From contig JAAYLQ010000127.1 in NCBI GenBank assembly GCA_012521805.1, forward strand, positions 1-61,615: a DNA stretch of 61,615 nt, in the 5' to 3' direction. Below, in pieces: positions 4,574 to 56,919 of this stretch. Under the pieces are notes generated by a model. The model was not told the DNA's origin. It worked only from the letters and a program-made list of their open reading frames with translations, and did no database searches. The stretch comes from Bacillota bacterium. GTDB lineage: Bacteria > Bacillota > Limnochordia > Darwinibacteriales > DTU012. Both the position numbers and the translations under genes were made by a program. Every line of letters begins with the position of its first letter. Positions within the stretch are counted from its first letter, which is position 1.

Positions 4574-6670
4574 ATGCCCGATACATTTACAATGGAATTA
4601 GGTCATCGAACCCTAACCTTGGAATTTGGCGAGCTGGCCAAACAGGCAAACGGCTCTGTGTTAGTCCGTTATGGCGATACAGTAGTATTAGTTACAGCCA
4701 CTATGGCAAAACAGCCTCGCCCAGATATTGATTTTTTCCCACTAATCGTTGATTATGAAGAAAAAATGTACTCTGTGGGAAAAATACCAGGGGGATGGGG
4801 TAGAAGAGAAGGTAGACCAGGTGAAGAAGCAATCTTAGCAGCCCGGATGATTGACCGACCCCTGCGGCCGCTGTTTCCAGAGGGATTCCGCAACGATGTA
4901 CAGGTTGTTGCAGCTGTACTGTCGGTTGATCAGAACAATTCACCATCAATTGCCGCGATGATTGGAGCAAGTGCTGCCCTAACCGTTTCTGATATTCCCT
5001 TCGAGGGACCGATTGGGGGAGTGAAAGTAGGTCGCGTTGATGGTAAATTCGTGATCAATCCAACTTCTGCCGAAGAAGCCAAATCGGATCTTGATCTGGT
5101 TGTAGCTGGTACTGCTGACGCAATCATGATGGTAGAAGCGGGAGCAAATGAAGTTGATGAAGAGATTATGCTGCAGGCCATCATGTTTGGCCACGAAGAA
5201 GTTAAGAAAATCTGTGCCCTGCAGGAAGAAATCCGGGCAAAGATCGGTAAGCCAAAAGTTGAAGTAGAACTCTTCCAGCCTGAAGAAACCCTTGTTCAGT
5301 GGATTACTGATTTCGCATCCGATAAACTCAAGGAAGCATTATACAATCAGAACAAACTTGAACGGGAACAAGACGTGAGTGACGTCCGCACACTGATCCA
5401 TGAAACATATCAGCAGCAGTTTGGTGAAGAAAAACATCTGGAGAACGAAAAAGCTATTGATGCTATCATTGATGATTTAACCAAAACGATTGTACGCACC
5501 ATGATCATCAATGGCATTAGGCCAGATGGACGCAAAACTGACCAGATCCGACCAATTAGTGTGAAGGTTGGGATTCTTCCAAGAACCCATGGTTCCGGAT
5601 TGTTTACCCGGGGACAAACCCAGGTTCTAACTGTCTGTACCCTTGGATTAAAGTCCGATGAACAGCTGCTGGACAACCTCACTGATGAAGATCGTAAACG
5701 TTATATTCATCACTACAACTTCCCGCCCTTCTCGGTAGGTGAGGTAAGGTCAATCCGCAGCCCAGGTCGGAGAGAGATTGGACACGGAGCATTAGCCGAA
5801 AGAGCTCTGTTGCCTATGATACCATCAGAAGAAGAATTTCCGTACACCATCCGCTTGGTTTCAGAAGTTCTTGAATCTAATGGTTCCAGTTCTCAGGCAA
5901 GCGTATGCGGCAGTACTTTGGCTTTAATGGATGCAGGTGTCCCAATTAAGCGACCGGTTGCCGGCATTGCTATGGGCTTAGTTAAGTACGAAGATCAAAT
6001 TGCGATTTTAACGGATATCCAAGGTCTTGAAGATGCTTTAGGAGATATGGACTTCAAAGTGGCTGGAACCAGTCAAGGAATTACAGCCCTGCAGATGGAT
6101 ATCAAAGTCAGTGGAGTAAGTGAAGATATTTTGAGAAATGCATTAGCCCAAGCACGTGAGGGACGTCTCTTTATTCTCGATAAAATGCTGGAAGTAATTG
6201 CTCAGCCGCGTGAAGAACTATCACCTTACGCTCCTAGGATCATTACTACAGAGATTCCTGTAGACCGGATCCGTGATGTGATTGGACCAGGGGGCAAAAC
6301 TATCCGCAAGATTATTGAGGAAACTAATGTCGCTATTGATATTGATGATGATGGCCGCGTGTACATTGCCTCTACTGCAGACGGCGATGGAGAAAAAGCA
6401 CTGAGAATGATCGAAAGTTACACTAAAGATGTTGAAGTGGGTGCTTCCTACTTAGGTGTAGTTAAGCGGATCATGAAGTTTGGTGCTTTTGTAGAGATTC
6501 TGCCGGGTAAAGAAGGATTGGTACACATTTCACAGTTAGCCAATGAAAGAGTTAATCGCGTGGAAGATGTACTCAATGTAGGAGATGAGGTTTTAGTGAA
6601 AGTTACTGATATCGATCGCCAAGGCCGCATCAACTTATCAAGAAAAGCAGTACTTACAAATGTGGAGTAA
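4574..6670 (+). CDS. pnp: polyribonucleotide nucleotidyltransferase (PNPase)
   Basis: Two RNase PH domains are followed by KH ([15 protein letters not shown]) and S1 ([19 protein letters not shown]) domains. ATG 4574 lies 7 nt after AGGAGG. Confidence 0.97.
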
Positions 6671-6674
6671 ATTT

Positions 6675-6699
6675 AAGCAGGTAATTGCCTGCTTTTTTT
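6675..6699 (+). terminator. intrinsic terminator after pnp
   Basis: The hairpin is AAGCAGG-taattg-CCTGCTT followed by a T-run. Confidence 0.85.
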
Positions 6700-6728
6700 G
6701 ATCCAAAATATGCAAAGGGTGAGCAAAT

Positions 6729-7823
6729 ATGGATTGCTGGGTAGTCCAAGGGCAGGTCATCGAAATTGTAAAAGCAGATCATCGCAAGCAGGAACTGCGG
6801 GTAAAGATCGGAAATAATGAGGAAAAGGCTGTGAATTTTCCAGAGCTAACCGGAACATGTGAACATGGCGATCAGGTGCTCCTCAATACCACAGCAGTAA
6901 CATTAGAATTAGGTTCCGGCGGAACACATTTCGTCATGGGAATTGTCGGTAGAGACTATCAGCCTGAAGCTGGTTCAGGCCACATCATGAAGCTGCGCTA
7001 CACACCCAGCCAAGGACGAGTGTTGAGTGTTGAAGAACATGATAGTCCTTATCATGACATTTTTAATACTGAATCATCGATTGAGGGGATGCCAGTTATA
7101 GTTGGGTCACTCCACAGTATGCTGGCGCCTGTCTGTATTGGTTTCAAGCACCTTGTTCCAGGGGGAAAAATTGTTTATTTGATGAGCGATGGTGCAGCTC
7201 TTCCCCTTGCGTTCAGCAATCAGGTTGCTTTACTGCTCGAGCTTGGTCTGCTCGATGATACAATTACTTTCAATCATGCATTCGGAGGCAGTTTTGAGGC
7301 TGTTAATGTCTACACAGCGCTGTTAACAGCAAAACATGTATGCCAAGCTGATGCCGCGGTGATCCTCATGGGTCCAGGAGTAGTAGGAACTGGTACAACC
7401 TGGGGTACAACAGCTCTAGAACAGGGGATCTATCTGAATGCAGTACATACCCTTGGTGGGCAGGGTATTGGTCTAGTGAGGGTCAGTTTTGCGGATCAGC
7501 GCCAGCGCCATCAAGGGATCAGCCACCATTCACTAACTGCCCTAACAAAAATTTGCGAGCATCCCTGTTTTGTACCACTGCCGCAACCTTTGAAGGATGA
7601 GCAGATCATTCAGACCCAGCTTCAACAGATCAAGCATCATCAGATTAAGTGGGTAGATACAGCTCAATACCGCTCCTTGTTGAGCGGCGCTCAGGTTCCC
7701 TTAACCACAATGGGCAGGAATTTTAATGCAGATCCATTTTTCTTTGAATCAGCACTGGCGGCTGGTTTGTATGCTGGCTGCCTGTTAGGGCACGGTGCCA
7801 TTCACCCAAGGTTTGAAACTTAG
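6729..7823 (+). CDS. conserved hypothetical protein, DUF3866-like
   Basis: A 364-aa ORF with a good RBS. The N-terminus (...VNFPELTG..GDQVLLNTTAV.LELGSGG.HFV) resembles the DUF3866 family as I recall it. This was not verified by search. Confidence 0.55.
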   Translation: MDCWVVQGQVIEIVKADHRKQELRVKIGNNEEKAVNFPELTGTCEHGDQVLLNTTAVTLELGSGGTHFVMGIVGRDYQPEAGSGHIMKLRYTPSQGRVLSVEEHDSPYHDIFNTESSIEGMPVIVGSLHSMLAPVCIGFKHLVPGGKIVYLMSDGAALPLAFSNQVALLLELGLLDDTITFNHAFGGSFEAVNVYTALLTAKHVCQADAAVILMGPGVVGTGTTWGTTALEQGIYLNAVHTLGGQGIGLVRVSFADQRQRHQGISHHSLTALTKICEHPCFVPLPQPLKDEQIIQTQLQQIKHHQIKWVDTAQYRSLLSGAQVPLTTMGRNFNADPFFFESALAAGLYAGCLLGHGAIHPRFET

Positions 7824-7970
7824 CAGCTGCTTGGCGGAGCTGTGCTAAAACCCAGCTGGGCTTGCCAATAATTACAATCATGAGGAAGTCCCCCTTTCAC
7901 GTCAGTGATAGTATATGCAGGGGTTGTCATAAAATACCAATAAATGAATTGATCCAACAGGAGGGTGGCT

Positions 7971-8588
7971 GTGGGTATTTTAGTTCTGGTCCGCCATGGA
8001 GAAACCCAATGGAATAAAGAGGGAAGATACCAGGGACAGCATGATATACCCTTGTCAAAAACAGGACAACAGCAGGCGGAGCAATTAGCCCAGTTTTTCA
8101 GCAGTTGGTCCTTGGATGCAGTATACGCCAGCGATTTAACCCGGGCTGCGGATACCGCGTCCGCCATTGCTCAAGTGCATCAGCTCCCGGTGATAACCGA
8201 TCCGCGTTTAAGAGAATATGCCTTCGGCGTCTGGGAAGGGTTAACACGAGCAGAAATCAAACATAAATATCCCGAGCTGTATTATGGACGAAGGACTAAC
8301 ATCGATATTTTAATCCCAGGTGGAGAAACAGGTTCTCAGGTGCAGGCAAGAGCTTTTCAGTGGTTGTTGGAAGCAGCAGATCAAGAACATGAAACAGTGT
8401 TGGCTGTCAGTCATGGGGGAACGATCCGGGCGCTGCTTGCTAAGATTTTGGAGATTGACATCAGCAAATGTCATAAGCTGAGACTGGATAACGGCGGATT
8501 TTCCATCATCAGCTGGCAGGTGCATGATAACCGACGGCAGTTTAATATTCATGGGATTAACTGCAGAGCAGACAGCAAATGGCAGTGA
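7971..8588 (+). CDS. histidine phosphatase family protein (phosphoglycerate mutase / alpha-ribazole phosphatase-like)
   Basis: The RHG catalytic motif LVRHGETQWNKEGRYQG and the downstream SHGG motif are present. GTG 7971 lies 6 nt after AGGAGG. Confidence 0.85.
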   Translation: MGILVLVRHGETQWNKEGRYQGQHDIPLSKTGQQQAEQLAQFFSSWSLDAVYASDLTRAADTASAIAQVHQLPVITDPRLREYAFGVWEGLTRAEIKHKYPELYYGRRTNIDILIPGGETGSQVQARAFQWLLEAADQEHETVLAVSHGGTIRALLAKILEIDISKCHKLRLDNGGFSIISWQVHDNRRQFNIHGINCRADSKWQ

Positions 8589-8647
8589 CATAACTAGTTT
8601 CTTCTTGTCATATAATCCGGTAGACAGGCAAGAAGGAGGGAGCTGTT

Positions 8648-9265
8648 ATGCTTTACTACTTCCAACAGCGCTTACCAATTTTGATTGGAGTAGTCCTGCT
8701 GTTTCTGATGGGAATTGCTTTTGGCTCTGCAGCAGTAAAAACATTGTCCCAGGCTCAAATTTCTGACCTAAATAATTATCTGAAAAACTTCTACCGCAGT
8801 TTACCGGAAGACCTGGCCGGCGTCAACCGCCACGCATTGGCAGTCAGGGCAGCAGCCGATAATATTATCAAACTTGGCGGTTTAGTATGGGTGTTAGGCC
8901 TAACCATTATTGGCATTCCCTTGATACTAGGCATTATTTTTGTAAGAGGTTTTGTGCTGGGATTTACAGTTGGTTTTATGATTTCACAACTGGAATTTAA
9001 CGGAGTATTGGTGGCGGCTGCATCACTGCTTCCCCATAATTTACTGCTTGTTCCGGCATTGATTATTGCAGCTACAACAGCCATATCGTTTGCCATTTCA
9101 GCAGTCAAAACATTGATTGGCACATCGGAACGAAGCATTGTGAACCAATTCTTAGCGACTACGATCATTATTGTTTTCAGCAGTGGATTGTTAGCACTGG
9201 CATCCCTGGTGGAACTGTACATTACTCCAATATTAATGCGTTTATCCAGCAGTCTCATACTCTAA
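8648..9265 (+). CDS. spoIIM: stage II sporulation protein M
   Basis: A 205-aa polytopic membrane protein. Its N-terminus (LLFLMGIAFGSAAVKTLSQAQISDLNNYLKNF) resembles B. subtilis SpoIIM, and it neighbours xerD as in Bacillus. Confidence 0.78.
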   Translation: MLYYFQQRLPILIGVVLLFLMGIAFGSAAVKTLSQAQISDLNNYLKNFYRSLPEDLAGVNRHALAVRAAADNIIKLGGLVWVLGLTIIGIPLILGIIFVRGFVLGFTVGFMISQLEFNGVLVAAASLLPHNLLLVPALIIAATTAISFAISAVKTLIGTSERSIVNQFLATTIIIVFSSGLLALASLVELYITPILMRLSSSLIL

Positions 9266-41678: not shown

Positions 41679-41761
41679 ATGTCTTTATGAACAAAATGTT
41701 TCAAGCTGCGTATATATATTAGGTGAGGTTGCTTTTGTTTGAGGTCTGGTGGAGGGAAAAT

Positions 41762-42703
41762 ATGGATAAGGAAGAGATTATCAATTTGGTAGAGAATGGA
41801 GAGGTTACGGTGAGTGAGGCTTTGTCCAGGTTGAGAAAGGCATACACAGGAACAGACAAAACGAAAGCAGAGTTAACCCAGAATGAAAAAGTTATGGCTG
41901 TTAAAAAGCAGCTAGACAGCTTAATTGGACTGCATTCAGTAAAAGAACTAGTTAACGAAGTCCAAGCCTTTGTCGAGATTCAGCAGCGGCGCAGCGCATT
42001 AAACTTGGCATCTGAACCGGTAGTCCTTCATATGATATTTAAGGGAAATCCAGGAACTGGAAAAACTACAGTTGCGCGGATAATTGGCCAGCTGTTTCTC
42101 GCCATGGGTGTGTTGCAGAAAGGACATTTAGTGGAAGTTGAGCGGGCTGACTTAGTAGCAGAATACATTGGACAGACCGCTCAGCGGACTAGAGAACAGC
42201 TTCGCAGAGCCCAGGGAGGAGTTTTGTTTATTGATGAAGCCTATTCCTTAGCTCGAGGGGGCACCAGAGACTTCGGCAAGGAAGCAATCGATACGATTGT
42301 AAAAACAATGGAAGATCAGAGAAACAATCTCATTGTGATTTTGGCTGGATATTCTGCACCTATGGAAGCGTTCCTGCAGACAAACCCGGGATTACGATCG
42401 CGGTTTCCCATCGTCATTTCTTTTCCGGATTATTCTAGTTTCGAGCTGTTTAGGATTGCTGAGCAGATGCTGCTGCAGCGGGAGTATCAGCTGACCAAAG
42501 CAGCCCGCCGAAAGCTTCTCCGGATCATTGAAGAACTAAAAGAACGGGATACTGAAAATTTTGGAAACGCTCGCACCGTCCGCAATATGATTGAAAAAGC
42601 AATTCGCAAGCAAGCTGTTAGACTGGTAAATATTCCCAATGCATCGCGGACCCAATTGATGGAAATTACAGAAGAGGATATCCAGGAGGTGAGCGATGTT
42701 TGA
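41762..42703 (+). CDS. spoVK: SpoVK/CbbX-type AAA+ ATPase
   Basis: The sequence GLHSVKELVNEVQAFVEIQQRR is followed by Walker A (GNPGTGKTTVAR) and Walker B (GVLFIDEAYSL). NLIVILAGY and NARTVRNMIEKA are also present. Confidence 0.85.
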   Translation: MDKEEIINLVENGEVTVSEALSRLRKAYTGTDKTKAELTQNEKVMAVKKQLDSLIGLHSVKELVNEVQAFVEIQQRRSALNLASEPVVLHMIFKGNPGTGKTTVARIIGQLFLAMGVLQKGHLVEVERADLVAEYIGQTAQRTREQLRRAQGGVLFIDEAYSLARGGTRDFGKEAIDTIVKTMEDQRNNLIVILAGYSAPMEAFLQTNPGLRSRFPIVISFPDYSSFELFRIAEQMLLQREYQLTKAARRKLLRIIEELKERDTENFGNARTVRNMIEKAIRKQAVRLVNIPNASRTQLMEITEEDIQEVSDV

Positions 42704-43308
42704 AGCGCATGATTGTACTCGGACAGCCTAACGCTGGAAAGACCTTATTTACACTTAACTTTGCAGCATATTTAGACTTGGAATCGGTAACAATCAATTT
42801 TACAAACTATGAACGGGGCTGTTACAGTAAAACACTATCAATTGCTGAAGCCAAATCACTATTGGTAAGCGATACCGCTCATCACACCCGAGATATTCAA
42901 ACGCTCACGCTTACTCTGCCGTGGGGAAAAGGAGAAAAGCAGTTTGAATTGGTTGACACTACTGGCCTAACAGATGGTATCAATCATGATGAAGAAATTC
43001 GCAGGGCAATGGCCCAAACCCTAAGATTTATGCGGCAGGCTGACATTATTTTTCATCTCCTTGATTGTGCCAGAATTGCAAAGGTTGGTCTTCTAAAAGG
43101 CATAGGGGAAATCGACTATCAGATTGCCCAATTTGGTCAGCTGAAAAGAGGGTACTTAATATTAGCTAATAAAATTGATTTACCCAATGCCAAGGACGGA
43201 TTAGAAAAAATCATACAAGAATTTCCTGGCAACCGCATTATCAGAATCTCAGCTTTAACACAAAAGGGCTTCAAGGAGGTAAAGAATTATGCCAAAAAGC
43301 TTCTCTGA
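42700..43308 (+). CDS. stand-alone small GTPase (Era/EngA/FeoB-like TRAFAC class)
   Basis: The GTPase motifs are G1 GQPNAGKT, G3 DTTGL, G4 NKIDL and G5 SAL. The product is only about 200 aa. TTG 42700 overlaps the spoVK stop, and ATG 42709 is an alternative start. Confidence 0.75.
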   Translation: MKRMIVLGQPNAGKTLFTLNFAAYLDLESVTINFTNYERGCYSKTLSIAEAKSLLVSDTAHHTRDIQTLTLTLPWGKGEKQFELVDTTGLTDGINHDEEIRRAMAQTLRFMRQADIIFHLLDCARIAKVGLLKGIGEIDYQIAQFGQLKRGYLILANKIDLPNAKDGLEKIIQEFPGNRIIRISALTQKGFKEVKNYAKKLL

Positions 43309-43885
43309 GTGGATCAATCTGCTGCCTAGTTTTGGGGCGATCCTTTTCACTGCGGTGGCTGTAAAATGGCTGGATGATTTTATTGATGGTGAAAGCTATA
43401 CAGAATCATTTCGAGCAGGTGCAGCATACAGCCTAACAGCGATTCTGCTGGCGGCTGCCCTCGAATTTTCCCTCACCTTTGCACTATTTGCAGCCTGCTA
43501 CATCATCGGTATGTTTAACAGCTTGAAGATGCGGCTGCCTTCTGGGCTGCCGAGCTGGGCGGAATCGGTTATTGCTTTAATATTAGCGATCATTTTTAGT
43601 GGTTTTAAGCAGGTATGTTGGGCTTTACTGATCATAATCAGCGTTCAGCTGATTGATGACATTATGGACTATAAACTCGATCAGAGTCAGAACCGGTCTA
43701 ATGCAGTGCTTTATTTTGGACTGGAACGGAGCTGGATCTTGTTCTTGTTCTGCTTTTACTTATCACTGAAATTTCAGCCACTGCTCTCCGTGATCGTACT
43801 GGCCGCGGCTCTGATTACTGGAAACGTGCTGTTCAGTAAAGCAGGAGGAGGGAGAAGCCTTAATGCCACAACTAGATATGATTGA
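43289..43885 (+). CDS. polytopic membrane protein of unknown family with two DDxxD-type motifs
   Basis: ATG 43289 lies 9 nt after AAGGAGG and inside the GTPase 3' end (20-nt overlap). About 6 hydrophobic helices are present. The motifs are KWLDDFIDGE and QLIDDIMDYKLD. Confidence 0.6.
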   Translation: MPKSFSEWINLLPSFGAILFTAVAVKWLDDFIDGESYTESFRAGAAYSLTAILLAAALEFSLTFALFAACYIIGMFNSLKMRLPSGLPSWAESVIALILAIIFSGFKQVCWALLIIISVQLIDDIMDYKLDQSQNRSNAVLYFGLERSWILFLFCFYLSLKFQPLLSVIVLAAALITGNVLFSKAGGGRSLNATTRYD

Positions 43886-44102
43886 TCTGATCATTCTAGG
43901 GCTATTTGCAGTCTTTTATATTAGTTTTACACTAGGTTACAACAAGGGTCGCAAGCGGGGATATGCTGAAGGTGAAATTGAAAGCTTGTTAATACTGCGG
44001 GAAAAGAACTTATTATTGGGACAATGCTGTCTATGTGGGTTAAAGCAGGATTCTGATAGCTTATTACCGAATTATGGTAACTTGGATACCGAAGATTACT
44101 AA
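43863..44102 (+). CDS. 79-aa single-pass membrane peptide (Cys-rich tail)
   Basis: ATG 43863 follows GGAGGAGGG and overlaps the upstream gene by 23 nt. The TM helix is IDLIILGLFAVFYISFTLGY, followed by KGRKRG and then GQCCLCG. Confidence 0.45.
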   Translation: MPQLDMIDLIILGLFAVFYISFTLGYNKGRKRGYAEGEIESLLILREKNLLLGQCCLCGLKQDSDSLLPNYGNLDTEDY

Positions 44103-44147
44103 TCAAACGGTCGCAGAAAATCTACATTGAAGGAACGTGAATGGTAT

Positions 44148-45356
44148 ATGAGTATTATTGAAGCTGCAAAGGCTAAAGTTCAAGACCAATGGTCAGCCCT
44201 AGCAGAGGTCAGCAAGCTGAATCAAGCCAAGGTATTAACAGCATTCCAAGAATGCAGGGTAGGTGCCCATTGTTTTACAGATTCCACAGGTTATGGCTAC
44301 CATGACTTAGGCAGAGATGCCTTAGAAAATGTGTATAAAACTGTTTTTAAAACGGAAGCTGCCTTAGTGCGGCCCCAGATAGTTTCCGGCACCCATGCAA
44401 TCAATCTTTGCTTATCTATTCTAAACGCAGGAGATCAATTAATTTCGATCAGCGGCACTCCTTATGATACACTGCAGCAGGTGATCGGTACTAAAGGCAG
44501 CACAAGAACCAGCCTGATAAAACGGGGAGTAGAATATCAGGAGGTACCCCTCACCGCTGAAGGAAAACTCGATTATGATTTGATCGCCAAAACAGTTACC
44601 AAGGATACCCGCATGGTAATGCTTCAGCGTTCTAGAGGCTACAGCTGGCGCCCTTCAATTACCATCGAGGAGATTAAAAAGGCTTTTGCCATTGTTAAGT
44701 CCATCAATCCAGATTGTATCTGCTTTGTTGATAACTGTTACGGCGAGTTTGCTGAGCTTCAAGAACCAACGGAAGTTGGTGCAAATCTGATTGCTGGCTC
44801 CCTGATTAAAAACCCGGGTGGGGGATTAGCTCCCAGCGGTGGATATATCGTTGGAGACGCTGATTTAGTAGAACTCTGCAGCGAGTACCTGACTGCTCCT
44901 GGCATTGGAGCAGAAGTGGGACCAACATTTAATATGATCCGAGAGCTGATGCAGGGCTTCTTTATTGCACCCCATGTTGTAGGACAAGCCTTAAGAGGCG
45001 CAATTTTAGCTTCACAAGTCTTTCAAGATTTAGGTTATGAGGTTTCACCGCTGCCCACAGAAAAACGAACAGACATTATACAAGCAATTAAATTGAATTC
45101 TCGTGATAAATTATTAGCATTTTGCCGAGCAATTCAATTTGCAGCGCCTATCGATTCCCAATTCGCTCCGATTCCTGAGGATATGCCGGGTTATGATGAC
45201 CAAATAGTAATGGCAGGCGGAACATTCATCCAAGGTTCGTCAATCGAACTAAGTGCTGATGCACCTGTTAAGGAACCGTACATTGTCTATCTTCAGGGCG
45301 GACTGTGCCTAGAGCACGTTGAATTAGCATTAGAAGCGGTAATTAAAACTTTATAA
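44148..45356 (+). CDS. ynbB: PLP-dependent YnbB / 'aluminium resistance' family protein (Cys/Met-metabolism fold)
   Basis: The sequence FTDSTGYGYHDLGRDALENVYKTVFKTEAALVRPQIVSGTHAI is typical of the family. The start is uncertain (ATG 44148 or TTG 44127). Confidence 0.8.
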   Translation: MSIIEAAKAKVQDQWSALAEVSKLNQAKVLTAFQECRVGAHCFTDSTGYGYHDLGRDALENVYKTVFKTEAALVRPQIVSGTHAINLCLSILNAGDQLISISGTPYDTLQQVIGTKGSTRTSLIKRGVEYQEVPLTAEGKLDYDLIAKTVTKDTRMVMLQRSRGYSWRPSITIEEIKKAFAIVKSINPDCICFVDNCYGEFAELQEPTEVGANLIAGSLIKNPGGGLAPSGGYIVGDADLVELCSEYLTAPGIGAEVGPTFNMIRELMQGFFIAPHVVGQALRGAILASQVFQDLGYEVSPLPTEKRTDIIQAIKLNSRDKLLAFCRAIQFAAPIDSQFAPIPEDMPGYDDQIVMAGGTFIQGSSIELSADAPVKEPYIVYLQGGLCLEHVELALEAVIKTL

Positions 45357-45471: not shown

Positions 45472-46107
45472 ATGGGAGCTCGTACTGATCAGTTAACAGC
45501 GCCAGCTATTGAATGGGACAAGTTAACCGATGAAGAGATTGTCAGAATTGCCCAGCAGGGTAATCGCGACGCCGAAGAACACTTGATAAGAAAGTACCAG
45601 AAAATGGTCTTCATTTGGACCCGCTCATATTTTCTACAAGGAGCCGAACCGGATGATCTGATCCAAGAAGGTATGATCGGCTTGTACAAAGCAATTCGAG
45701 ATTTTTCCGTCGGTACTTCTTCTTTTTGGTCATTCGCTAAGTTGTGCATCATCCGCAACGTAATCAGTGCCATCAAGGGTACTACACGCCAAAAACATCT
45801 TCCGCTAAATTCCTACACATCCCTACATCGTCCGATAAAGGACACTGAAGGTGACCGTACACTTTTAGAAACTTTGACCAACCACAGGGTGGACGACCCT
45901 GAAGTTCTGGTGATCAACCGCGAAGAACTGCAGGCAACCAGCACTACTATCCAATCTATCCTTTCCAAATTTGAAAATGAGGTGTTTAGACTGTACATTT
46001 CCGGATTTACTTATCGCGAAATTGCTGAGCAGCTCAACACCCACACTAAATCTGTAGATAACGCTCTCTGCCGGATCAAAACCAAAATAGAAAAGAAATT
46101 ATCGTAG
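45472..46107 (+). CDS. sigH: RNA polymerase sigma factor SigH (early sporulation / transition state)
   Basis: There is strong similarity to B. subtilis Spo0H as recalled: SYFLQGAEPDDLIQEGMIGLYKAIRDF...FAKLCIIRNVISAIKGTTRQKHLPLNSYTSL...DRTLLE...VKSVDNALCRIKTKIEK. Confidence 0.88.
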   Translation: MGARTDQLTAPAIEWDKLTDEEIVRIAQQGNRDAEEHLIRKYQKMVFIWTRSYFLQGAEPDDLIQEGMIGLYKAIRDFSVGTSSFWSFAKLCIIRNVISAIKGTTRQKHLPLNSYTSLHRPIKDTEGDRTLLETLTNHRVDDPEVLVINREELQATSTTIQSILSKFENEVFRLYISGFTYREIAEQLNTHTKSVDNALCRIKTKIEKKLS

Positions 46108-46179
46108 ACACAGCGGTTTATCTACGGTAAAATAAATACACTAACAACAGCAGGAAAAATAGTCCAAGGAGTGTGGTCT

Positions 46180-46836
46180 GTGGATTTTTCTTTACCAGTG
46201 GTTGCACTTTTTAGATTATTACTTTCGGTAGTTTTTGGTGGTCTGATCGGATTAGAACGGGAAAGTCATGGCCGTCCTGCAGGATTCCGCACCCATATTC
46301 TTGTATCTTTAGGTTCAACTCTAATTATGATTATCTCCGCCTATGGACTCGCCAGTGTTAATCCAAGTTACGACCCCGGCCGCATTGCAGCTCAGGTTAT
46401 CAGCGGGATCGGGTTTTTAGGGGCAGGCACGATTATGCGGGAAGGTGCTAATATACGGGGACTAACCACGGCTGCCAGCTTGTGGGCTGTAGCTGGAATT
46501 GGTTTAGCTGTTGGGATTGGCATGTACTTCGCCGCTGCAGTTTCCACGATTTTGGTTGTGTTCACCTTAATCTACTTAAACAAATTTGAGCTAGGCCACA
46601 ACACCTACACTATTCGGATCACTACCAGCGACCAAATTAACCAAATGGCAGCTATTATTTCAGCTTTCGCTCAACATGGAGTACATATCAATCAGATGAC
46701 AATTAATAATCAGGATCACGGCATTGTAACGATTGAGATTACTGTTAATGCGCCAAAAAGGCATCAGCTCCAGCAGTTAATGGTAAAATTGAACGAGCTG
46801 GAAGGTATTAGTCGTGCTTCAATCGATAGGGAATAG
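46180..46836 (+). CDS. MgtC/SapB family membrane protein
   Basis: The sequences GLIGLERESHGRPAGFRTHILV and GIGFLGAGTIMREG match the family, and a C-terminal ACT-like domain follows. Confidence 0.85.
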   Translation: MDFSLPVVALFRLLLSVVFGGLIGLERESHGRPAGFRTHILVSLGSTLIMIISAYGLASVNPSYDPGRIAAQVISGIGFLGAGTIMREGANIRGLTTAASLWAVAGIGLAVGIGMYFAAAVSTILVVFTLIYLNKFELGHNTYTIRITTSDQINQMAAIISAFAQHGVHINQMTINNQDHGIVTIEITVNAPKRHQLQQLMVKLNELEGISRASIDRE

Positions 46837-46846
46837 GAGGAGTAGC

Positions 46847-47605
46847 GTGCGCTTTTTAGTAACCAATGACGATGGAATATATGCAGAAGGCATACGGGTC
46901 CTAATAGAAACTCTGGCTCGCCTTGGTGACGTTTATGTAGTAGCTCCCAATCAAGAGCGCAGTGGTGTGGGACATGGTATCACCGTCAATCGACCCCTCA
47001 GGATTGAAAGGGTTTCCTTTTTCTCAGGTATTAAGGAAGCTTATATGATGGATGGCACACCAGCAGATTGTGTTAAACTGGCAATTGAGGCTATGGAGCT
47101 GGAAGTTGATTTTGTGATATCAGGGATCAACAATGGGGCGAATCTCGGTACAGATGTTTTTTATTCTGGAACTGTGGCAGCAGCCTTTGAGGGTGCTCTC
47201 CAGAACATTCCATCAATAGCCCTGTCCTTATGTAAAAAGTCTGCTGTGGATCAGGGACTCTACCAAACCGCCGCTGAATGTCTGGTTCAAATCCTCACGA
47301 AACTCAAGAATGCGGCTGTGACTGGCCTGCTGAATGTAAATGTACCGAATATACCGATGGAACAAGTTAAAGGGGTTAGAGCTACAAAACTGGGTGTGGG
47401 CAGGTACAAAAATTTGTTTGAAAAACGCCTAGATCCAAGGGGAAAACCCTATTATTGGATGAAAGGGATCCAATTTGAACTAGAGAATACTGATGAGGAT
47501 GATTACCGCGCAGTTCAACAAGGTTTCGTTTCAATTACGCCATTAAAGATCGATATGACTAATTATGAACAGTTTCAGACTGTTAGGTCGATATTTAACG
47601 AATAA
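46847..47605 (+). CDS. surE: 5'/3'-nucleotidase SurE
   Basis: The sequences RFLVTNDDGIYAEGI, GINNGANLGTDVFYSGTVAAAFEG match SurE. GTG 46847 follows GGAGGAG. Confidence 0.93.
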   Translation: MRFLVTNDDGIYAEGIRVLIETLARLGDVYVVAPNQERSGVGHGITVNRPLRIERVSFFSGIKEAYMMDGTPADCVKLAIEAMELEVDFVISGINNGANLGTDVFYSGTVAAAFEGALQNIPSIALSLCKKSAVDQGLYQTAAECLVQILTKLKNAAVTGLLNVNVPNIPMEQVKGVRATKLGVGRYKNLFEKRLDPRGKPYYWMKGIQFELENTDEDDYRAVQQGFVSITPLKIDMTNYEQFQTVRSIFNE

Positions 47606-56058: not shown

Positions 56059-56919
56059 TTGAAAAAATGGTGGCTGAGTTTGCGTCCTTTTAGTTTTACC
56101 GCTTCTATCATACCCATGCTGCTGGGACTTGCAATCGCTGCAGAACAAACTGCGATTAACCTAGTAGGTGCGGCACTTGCTGTCGCGGCTGGATTAACAC
56201 TCCACATTATCGCAAACATTTTTAACAGTTATTACGACTGGAAATACGGGCATGATCGTCCCGGCGACCAACAGGTGGTTCCCCTACTGCTGGACCCTAG
56301 ACTTGGCGAATCAGCGCTTTACTGGTATGGGGTCTGTTTTTTTATTCTCGGCATTATATTAACTATTGTTCTCGGCATAATGTATAACTCAACCGTTTTT
56401 TTAATCACTCTCGTTGGTTTGTTTAATGCCTATTTCTACACCGCACCTCCGATTGCCTATAAAAAAAGAGGATTGGCGCTGCCGTCGGTTTTTATTTCCA
56501 TGGGAATCCTGATGCCATTAAACACTTATTTTGTACAAGTCAGCAATCTCACCCTTAAAATTCTACTGTGTCCGATCCCCCTAGCTGTATTAGTTACCGC
56601 AATTCTGCAGAGTAATGAACTGCGGGACTATGGTGCTGATCTCAGGCATGGCATTCGCTCATTAACAGTAGTGTACGGCATCAAAGTCGGAATTAAGTTT
56701 TATCAATTCCTAATCTTATCGCCTTATATCCTGACCCCCCTCCTAATATCTGCTGGGTTAGTTCCATGGTTTGGAGGTATAGTTTTTATAACCATCCCAT
56801 ATGCCTTGAAGCTTATTCGAAAAGCAGACCTCCATGAGTTTATCAGCCTTGATGCTGCCACCGCAAAACTGCATGCTGCGTTTGGTATTTTATATACGAT
56901 TGCACTAATCATGCAGTGA
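56059..56919 (+). CDS. UbiA-family prenyltransferase (MenA-like)
   Basis: About 8-9 TM helices are present. The Asp-rich motif is NIFNSYYDWKYGHD. The start is TTG, downstream of GGTGAGGTGAG. Confidence 0.78.
   Translation: MKKWWLSLRPFSFTASIIPMLLGLAIAAEQTAINLVGAALAVAAGLTLHIIANIFNSYYDWKYGHDRPGDQQVVPLLLDPRLGESALYWYGVCFFILGIILTIVLGIMYNSTVFLITLVGLFNAYFYTAPPIAYKKRGLALPSVFISMGILMPLNTYFVQVSNLTLKILLCPIPLAVLVTAILQSNELRDYGADLRHGIRSLTVVYGIKVGIKFYQFLILSPYILTPLLISAGLVPWFGGIVFITIPYALKLIRKADLHEFISLDAATAKLHAAFGILYTIALIMQ

Follow-up and report, generated by a model that had tools for sequence, protein, structure and literature searches.

Directly downstream of a spoVK-like gene in a 61,615-nucleotide (nt) stretch of a Bacillota bacterium (Limnochordia, Darwinibacteriales; contig JAAYLQ010000127.1; the whole stretch is referred to as the window), three small genes encode a stand-alone GTPase, a seven-helix membrane protein that appears to be a remote relative of the UbiA superfamily (“mini-UbiA”) and a single-pass membrane peptide with a cysteine knuckle. 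The arrangement of these genes, hereafter the module, recurs across 80 loci of other species to a degree far above chance, which is strong evidence of a single co-translated unit. We propose, as a plausible but still tentative interpretation, that the trio is a sporulation-linked membrane complex acting on a polyprenyl-diphosphate substrate under the control of the GTPase.

Conservation and translational coupling of the module

A scan of one genome per species turned up a relative in 240 genomes; the best 80 loci are compared here, and neighbours were scored by comparing the window proteins with all open reading frames (ORFs) of each locus. The spoVK gene lies directly upstream of the GTPase gene in 78 of the 80 loci, and the membrane gene follows the GTPase gene directly in 79. 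The peptide gene, detected with a profile built from the first peptide matches, is found directly 3′ of the membrane gene in 77 loci; the three loci lacking a match are two contig ends and a decayed module in Tumebacillus flagellatus (L047; L numbers denote compared loci). Exactly 20 nt ahead of the GTPase stop codon, 77 of the 80 loci have a start codon (TTG in 62, ATG in 15), and the GAGG-type Shine-Dalgarno sequence of the membrane gene is coded by the GTPase residues K-E-V in 74. Together, the gene order, the fixed −20 start and the conserved KEV-coded Shine-Dalgarno sequence argue that the genes are translated as one unit. In 41 of 78 loci, the GTPase gene begins within the last 4 nt of spoVK.

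Within the window itself, the overlaps are 4 nt between spoVK and the GTPase gene, 20 nt between the GTPase and membrane genes and 23 nt between the membrane and peptide genes, and a GGAGG-type Shine-Dalgarno sequence precedes each of the three coupled starts (Table 1). A preliminary description of this DNA had listed the four ORFs with these overlaps, their Shine-Dalgarno sites and a complete set of G1–G5 motifs in the GTPase, all of which a re-reading of the sequence bore out. Its proposal of one translationally coupled, co-occurring module, which it suggested examining in other genomes, agrees with the adjacency and start-codon counts in the 80 loci.

Carriers of the module are nearly all Bacillota. 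They include Limnochordia and Darwinibacteriales-like metagenome-assembled genomes (MAGs), Tepidanaerobacter, Thermosediminibacter, Geosporobacter, Marinisporobacter, Thermotalea, Dethiobacter, Halanaerobiales, Dendrosporobacter and Tumebacillus/Effusibacillus, and the carrier groups also include Thermosediminibacterales, Peptostreptococcales, Negativicutes and Alicyclobacillaceae. Anaerobic digesters, compost and manure commonly contain the window organism, whose GTPase shares 77% identity with its counterpart in Candidatus Wallacebacter cryptica. Two contigs labelled otherwise (L009 and L071, as Sumerlaeota and Chloroflexota MAGs) have the same mutL-miaA-hfq-spoVK synteny of Bacillota and are probably mis-binned.

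The chromosome of Geosporobacter ferrireducens (L062) and a 24.6-kb record named “plasmid unnamed1” (L063) hold the same mutL-miaA-hfq-spoVK-GTPase stretch; the identical coordinates and scores on both records point to a duplication in the assembly and not to a copy on a plasmid. In the decayed module of T. flagellatus (positions 6590–9140) the −20 start is ACG, an internal deletion in the membrane gene fuses motif 1 with the tail of motif 2 and with the peptide tail, and two arrays of clustered regularly interspaced short palindromic repeats (37-nt repeat, GTCTCAACCYAAGACCCGACTAACAGGGGACTGAAAC) lie immediately 3′.

The membrane protein as a probable shortened relative of UbiA enzymes

A word-indexed homologue search with the single membrane protein gave three matches only, and an exhaustive search of 1.84 billion representatives gave 318, of which the 150 listed are mostly 180–215 amino acids (aa) long and none exceeds 273 aa. 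In an alignment of 78 sequences, residues D29, D33, Y47, G74, M75, E92, D123, D127 and G144 are invariant, and two aspartate motifs stand out, K-L-M-DDxLDxxxD (D29 D30 xx D33) and QLxDDLxDxxxDxxxGxxN (Q120 xx D123 D124 xx D127 … N138). The AlphaFold model (predicted local distance difference test, pLDDT, 84.7; predicted template modelling score, pTM, 0.81) has seven membrane helices, one more than the preliminary description had counted, with one aspartate motif at the end of helix 1 and the other at the end of helix 5. Lysine and arginine counts of the loops give an N-out/C-in topology in which both motifs are cytoplasmic, because they lie on K/R-rich loops. The N- and C-terminal halves are homologous to each other (hhalign probability 97.5%, E = 5.5e-12).

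UbiA is the only family that recurs among the matches of the homologues of this protein, which the preliminary description had called unassignable and placed with transporters or insertases; no link to the FeoB permease or to an insertase appeared. The UbiA profile PF01040 is matched at E ≤ 1 by 28 of 56 members, the best single member (E = 1.4e-5, 25 bits) being colinear over profile positions 18–225 of 250, and the family consensus reaches 37.9 bits against a gathering threshold of 34.2 (E = 1.6e-9). All 13 NCBIfam matches of the consensus are UbiA-superfamily enzymes, including MenA, DGGGP synthase, chlorophyll synthase and homogentisate phytyltransferase, each far under its cut-off. The second aspartate motif resembles the second aspartate-rich motif of long-chain polyprenyl-diphosphate synthases (sub-significant HMMER profile matches in PDB), and prenyl-diphosphate synthases lead the Foldseek list of the membrane model at non-significant scores, with UBIAD1 at rank 50 (E = 3).

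With UbiA, MenA, CyoE/CtaB and DGGGP synthase the protein shares an all-helical build, an internal pseudo-symmetry and cytoplasmic aspartate motifs of the forms (N/D)DxxDxxxD and DxxxDxxxGxx(S/T/N), four helices apart. The two cytoplasmic Asp-rich motifs that mark UbiA enzymes (NDxxDxxxD, DxxxD) are thus present, with their aspartates invariant or nearly so, whereas the arrangement of 8–9 helices around a closed central cavity with a lateral portal is not found in a protein of seven helices and 198 aa. UbiA enzymes are about 290 aa long and module proteins about 200 aa, and single module members score under every curated cut-off. The protein therefore seems to be a shortened and divergent, remote relative of the UbiA superfamily and no bona fide member of any characterised UbiA subfamily. 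Unlike UbiA enzymes, it is encoded beside a dedicated GTPase and a CPxC peptide, a partnership of which we know no other example for this superfamily. Elsewhere in the window (56059–56919), a full-length MenA-like ORF of the UbiA family (286 aa; phmmer against Escherichia coli MenA, E = 1.6e-11) indicates that the genome also holds a canonical UbiA enzyme.

The peptide and its cysteine knuckle

The consensus of the peptide family consists of a hydrophobic N-terminal helix followed by GYAxGRRxGxxEGxxxG…PLxLRxxxLxxGxCPxC, and the window peptide accordingly starts with a transmembrane helix, continues with a basic GxxxGxxEG helix and carries one CxxC knuckle (C55, C58). The CCxC tail of the preliminary description gives way to a conserved C(P)xC motif, with CxxC in 76 of 78 sequences. 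Single-sequence scans of the window peptide gave no Pfam or NCBIfam match; at the level of the motif it resembles the CPxC knuckles of rubredoxin, RING and the Rad50 hook, below threshold (E 0.0025–1). Conserved cysteines are absent from the GTPase and membrane-protein alignments. Because a lone knuckle cannot make a four-cysteine site and the partners offer no conserved cysteine, the simplest inference would be a metal site that bridges a dimer. Like the Rad50 zinc hook and rubredoxin-type knuckles, the peptide offers one C-P-x-C-G knuckle and depends on another, contributed by a partner chain, for a complete metal site, but in the module the knuckle sits on a membrane-anchored peptide of 60–90 aa.

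The coupling evidence for the complex proposed here (adjacency in 79 of 80 loci, −20 start) would equally suit a membrane protein and peptide that descend from a UbiA-type enzyme and serve, without catalysis, as an anchor or lipid sensor. They would bring the GTPase, and perhaps SpoVK as well, to a membrane enriched in undecaprenyl-(di)phosphate, and the working switch would then be the GTPase, acting for example on SpoVK or MurG. The shortened seven-helix build and the weak fold match fit lost catalysis. ShfA is a precedent for forespore targeting through recognition of undecaprenyl phosphate (PMC13598258), and SpoVK is localised to the forespore (PMC11513918). Both aspartate motifs are, however, invariant over about 80 very divergent sequences, which is typical of retained metal-diphosphate chemistry. 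We regard an anchor as rather unlikely, although binding alone would also conserve the motifs and the two interpretations are poorly separated on this point.

Link to SpoVK and proposed link to sporulation

The SpoVK-like protein contains the AAA and AAA_lid_6 domains and matches TIGR02881 (spore_V_K) over the full model length, with 402.9 bits against a cut-off of 422.95. Orthology with SpoVK is supported by the syntenic position between miaA/hfq and hflX/ynbB. Residues 3–26 of its N-terminus (41762–41840) are weakly SHOCT-like (PF22746, E = 0.004), which differs from the beta-strand N-terminal domain described for Bacillus subtilis SpoVK. According to PMC11513918, SpoVK is a forespore-localised AAA+ protein that promotes MurG in cortex synthesis. 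The AAA+ family and the syntenic position are common to that SpoVK–MurG axis and to our locus, and the step served by SpoVK there uses an undecaprenyl-diphosphate-linked substrate (PMC11513918).

Since an intrinsic terminator follows miaA, spoVK starts a new transcription unit; within the window, no terminator was found 3′ of spoVK or between the peptide gene and ynbB. Promoter motifs were counted upstream of spoVK in 73 loci, using shuffles, coding sequence (72) and the opposite strand (73) as controls. A sigma-K-like motif, AC-N16/17-C[AG]TAnnnT, is present in 30 of these 73 loci compared with 2.2 ± 1.5 in shuffles, 4 of 72 in the coding control and 2 of 73 on the opposite strand. A sigma-E-type pattern was also tried and set aside, as it is not enriched (2 of 73 compared with 1.2 expected). 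The enrichment of the sigma-K-like motif is in line with the possible sporulation link through SpoVK that the preliminary description had suggested, and the association with SpoVK itself is upheld by adjacency in 78 of 80 loci and the 4-nt overlap in 41 of 78.

Metatranscriptome contigs cover positions 41757–43918 and 43268–45339, the latter spanning into ynbB, and one RNA contig begins at about 41748. The module is thus expressed, and the coverage is compatible with a single transcript; contigs of this kind show expression and do not prove transcript structure or timing. The membrane ORFs, for which the preliminary description had entertained a lack of conservation or expression, are conserved, and RNA contigs cover the module. 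The neighbouring genes sigH, mgtC and surE are highly expressed, and the module has a different RNA depth. A poly-A run 5′ of the spoVK start (41749–41756) varies among samples, with an extra A in one metatranscriptome contig.

In about 16 of the 80 loci (L011, L014, L019, L020, L023–L027, L029, L034, L036, L038, L040, L055 and L079), the module is directly followed, on its own strand, by genes for meso-diaminopimelate synthesis (dapF and/or dapL, encoding DapF and LL-diaminopimelate aminotransferase, respectively).

A housekeeping function in envelope lipids, unrelated to sporulation and with the spoVK neighbourhood as merely inherited synteny, strikes us as improbable. It is true that the surrounding mutS-mutL-miaA-hfq-hflX genes are an ancient housekeeping synteny and that coverage in bulk-community RNA is no proof of sporulation-specific expression. 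Nevertheless, in most loci the next start overlaps the spoVK stop, a sign of co-translation, a terminator lies before spoVK and none after it, the sigma-K-like motif is enriched upstream of spoVK, and the carriers are nearly all Bacillota with spoVK adjacent in almost every locus.

The GTPase is a generic TRAFAC domain

All five motifs of a G-domain are present in the GTPase: G1 GQPNAGKT (aa 8–15), G2 T63, G3 DTTG (86–89), G4 NKID (157–160) and G5 SAL (184–186). It scores 46.1 bits on PF01926 (MMR_HSR1; gathering score 21.9), and nearly all of the 109 homologues detected (about 95) are 194–215 aa long, named in their sources merely “GTP-binding protein HSR1” or “GTPase domain-containing”. With the AlphaFold2 model (pLDDT 93.8), Foldseek found the Era and MnmE G-domains closest (about 1e-9), followed by HflX, FeoB-N and EngB at similar E-values, and the closest sequence in a PDB profile search was B. 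subtilis Obg (1e-13). Family-specific features are a beta-hairpin plus helix inserted between G1 and G2 (aa 29–55) and the signature DGIHxDxxIRRAMAQTL, which includes a conserved IRRAMAQTL helix after switch II. Pfam and NCBIfam scans detected no KH or other accessory domain, which confirms the absence of a KH and an HflX N-terminal domain noted in the preliminary description. Membership of the YihA/EngB family gained no NCBIfam model match, EngB being just one of many G-domains in the Foldseek results.

A P-loop asparagine and a hydrophobic residue after G3 are marks of K+-stimulated GTPases without a catalytic glutamine, such as MnmE, Era and FeoB. As both are present here, the module GTPase is, by analogy, probably K+-stimulated and glutamine-less. 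It shares these two features and the complete G1–G5 set with the Era/Obg/Der/MnmE/HflX group and differs from it in being a single G-domain, devoid of an RNA-binding, KH, Obg-fold, HflX N-terminal or MnmE helical domain, as well as in its G1–G2 insert and the constant presence of a membrane-partner gene. The protein is therefore a generic Era/Obg/MnmE-like TRAFAC domain and not specifically FeoB-like, since Der, Era, Obg, HflX and MnmE all outscore FeoB, to whose G-domain type the preliminary description had likened it.

A related reading, which goes back to the preliminary description, is a split FeoB-like system, either a GTP-gated transporter (for example of divalent cations) or an insertase. 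Such a system would likewise pair a G-domain with a tightly coupled polytopic membrane protein, the acidic motifs of which could bind cations; FeoB G-domains are among the Foldseek matches, and the GTPase family consensus narrowly passes Pfam FeoB_N (28.3 bits, threshold 27). The window GTPase, on the other hand, reaches only 13.5 bits on FeoB_N, and the membrane protein gives UbiA as its sole recurrent family signal, with no match to FeoB_C, to a gate motif or to an insertase family. FeoB is a fusion of G-domain and permease, whereas the module consists of separate polypeptides with a UbiA-like membrane part. What the two have in common is the principle of a TRAFAC G-domain at the service of a polytopic membrane protein, together with a weak similarity of the G-domains. 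None of the 150 listed among the 318 membrane-protein representatives carries a G-domain fusion. The sole fusion of GTPase and membrane protein (P0331, 393 aa, an ENA contig of the same organism) has as its junction the frameshifted N-terminus of the membrane gene and is an assembly or indel artefact. We therefore reject the FeoB-like proposal as highly improbable. Two apparent fusions of membrane protein and peptide (P0182, P0217) were not relied on either, as the tail orientation they imply conflicts with the positive-inside rule.

The module is an addition to the spoVK–hflX interval

Across the loci the general gene order is mutL-miaA-hfq-spoVK-[GTPase-membrane protein-peptide]-hflX-ynbB. 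The hfq gene lies between miaA and spoVK in 39 of the 80 loci, and full-length hflX follows the module, before ynbB, in five (L031, L049, L067, L071 and L076). Neither hfq nor hflX occurs anywhere in the 61.6-kb window, so that the earlier observation of a miaA without a following hfq holds; the window lineage has lost both genes from the spoVK locus. Because a complete hflX coexists directly after the module in five loci, the module is an addition between spoVK and hflX and no substitute for HflX, contrary to the earlier view that it fills the HflX slot. That the small GTPase alone stands in for HflX in ribosome rescue or splitting where hflX was lost, with the membrane genes incidental, is scarcely credible and is rejected: for all its place between spoVK and ynbB, the missing hflX of the window and a weak G-domain likeness, it coexists with hflX, lacks the HflX N-terminal (GTP-bdg_N/M) domain, scores 28.4 bits on TIGR03156 (cut-off 216.75) and has its gene bound to the membrane gene by the conserved 20-nt overlap.

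Locus layout and neighbouring genes

Table 1. Features of the spoVK locus in the window.
Feature	Position	Strand	Remarks
Intrinsic terminator, 3′ of miaA	41645..41673	+	11-bp stem followed by T-run
Candidate mother-cell (sigma-K/sigma-E-like) promoter	41691..41716	+	AC (41691), 16-nt spacer, CGTATATA (41709)
SpoVK-like AAA+ ATPase, 313 aa	41762..42703	+	alternative upstream GTG at 41723
Shine-Dalgarno GGAGG of GTPase gene, within spoVK 3′ end	42685..42689	+	sequence read directly
Stand-alone TRAFAC GTPase, 202 aa, TTG start	42700..43308	+	PF01926, motifs, model
Shine-Dalgarno AAGGAGGT of membrane gene	43273..43280	+	coded by conserved GTPase codons K-E-V
Putative mini-UbiA membrane protein, 198 aa, 7 helices	43289..43885	+	profiles, AlphaFold model, loop charges
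Shine-Dalgarno GGAGGAGGGAG of peptide gene	43844..43854	+	sequence read directly
Single-pass membrane peptide, 79 aa	43863..44102	+	family profile, alignments
YnbB-type pyridoxal-phosphate enzyme, Met_gamma_lyase family	44148..45356	+	PF06838, E 1e-177

The ynbB gene is present in 56 of the 80 loci at a variable distance from the module, and we regard it as a conserved downstream neighbour outside the module core that is possibly co-transcribed with it. Just upstream of ynbB, several loci (L007, at 8561–8860, and also L010, L013, L017 and L078) have a conserved ORF of about 90–100 aa with an acidic tail, which gave no NCBIfam match. Three genes come after ynbB in the window (45472–47605) and encode a sporulation sigma factor of the SigH type (NF006148, 253 bits; cut-off 208 bits), MgtC and SurE; these three, the RNA depth of which is much above that of the module, also follow in 9–19 related loci. 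The PADLOC defence models gave no match for the GTPase, the membrane protein or the peptide and only generic AAA+ matches for SpoVK.

Proposed mechanism

We infer that the products of the three genes after spoVK, which heads the operon, form one membrane complex, that GTP gates it, that its substrate is a prenyl diphosphate and that it has a role in sporulation. Transcription of the operon would probably take place in the mother cell during sporulation. If UbiA enzymes are a guide, the mini-UbiA protein may bind a polyprenyl (or other) diphosphate by its Mg2+-diphosphate head, while the CPxC motif in the cytoplasmic tail of the peptide could provide a half-site that is completed by a partner, for example through dimerisation. 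The conserved 20-nt overlap would fix the output of the GTPase relative to that of the membrane protein, and the GTPase might dock on the cytoplasmic face and switch the enzyme or binder on and off. Such a complex could work at the forespore membrane beside SpoVK, which is the AAA+ chaperone in support of MurG and of lipid II synthesis for the spore cortex.

Several observations weigh against this proposal. The main caveats of the UbiA link are the weak fold and profile statistics and the missing helices: the window membrane protein alone matches no Pfam or NCBIfam family, the HMMER family profile reaches no solved UbiA structure in PDB, hhalign against a 4-sequence UbiA/MenA/CyoE profile is colinear but weak (P = 0.015, probability 2.9%), and Foldseek of the membrane model against PDB gives no significant match (best E 0.5, TM-score 0.3–0.43). 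With seven helices instead of 8–9, part of the canonical substrate pocket is missing. As to sporulation, the window promoter (CGTATATA) is only a near-match to the enriched sigma-K-like motif, and the loci with dapF/dapL neighbours belong to related lineages and may represent few independent events. Model spore-formers are not known to carry the module, which would hence not be essential for sporulation in general; B. subtilis is not known to have GTPase, mini-UbiA or peptide genes after spoVK.

A bolder version of the proposal, which we consider doubtful, sees in the trio an ancestral sporulation machine of the Bacillota: a mini-prenyltransferase, or a handler of undecaprenyl diphosphate, that is switched by GTP and bridged by zinc and that, at the outer forespore membrane, feeds or regulates the synthesis of lipid-linked cortex precursors. 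It might have been an original client or partner of SpoVK, and its loss in the Bacillus and Clostridium model lineages would explain why the trio went unnoticed.

Novelty and meaning of the module

The trio is assembled from known superfamilies and is itself unnamed by family models, there being no Pfam or NCBIfam family for the membrane protein or the peptide. Searches of the literature on SpoVK and on UbiA combined with sporulation and GTPase turned up no account of the module. Operon arrangements and the label “ZnBd: zinc-binding” are mentioned in the legend of Fig. 3A in PMC11513918, so that the spoVK neighbourhood may be drawn there without discussion.

SpoVK has only recently been tied to MurG and cortex synthesis. 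For the biology of sporulation, the module adds three conserved, unnamed proteins that are co-translated with SpoVK. If the proposed assignment is true, the module would provide the first case of a UbiA-type membrane protein that has its own GTPase partner, and this protein would have a smaller architecture than any other UbiA-like one described and as such be useful for defining a minimal prenyl-diphosphate-binding membrane fold. Defining the membrane-protein and peptide families would lead to better annotation of many genomes from anaerobic digesters and compost.

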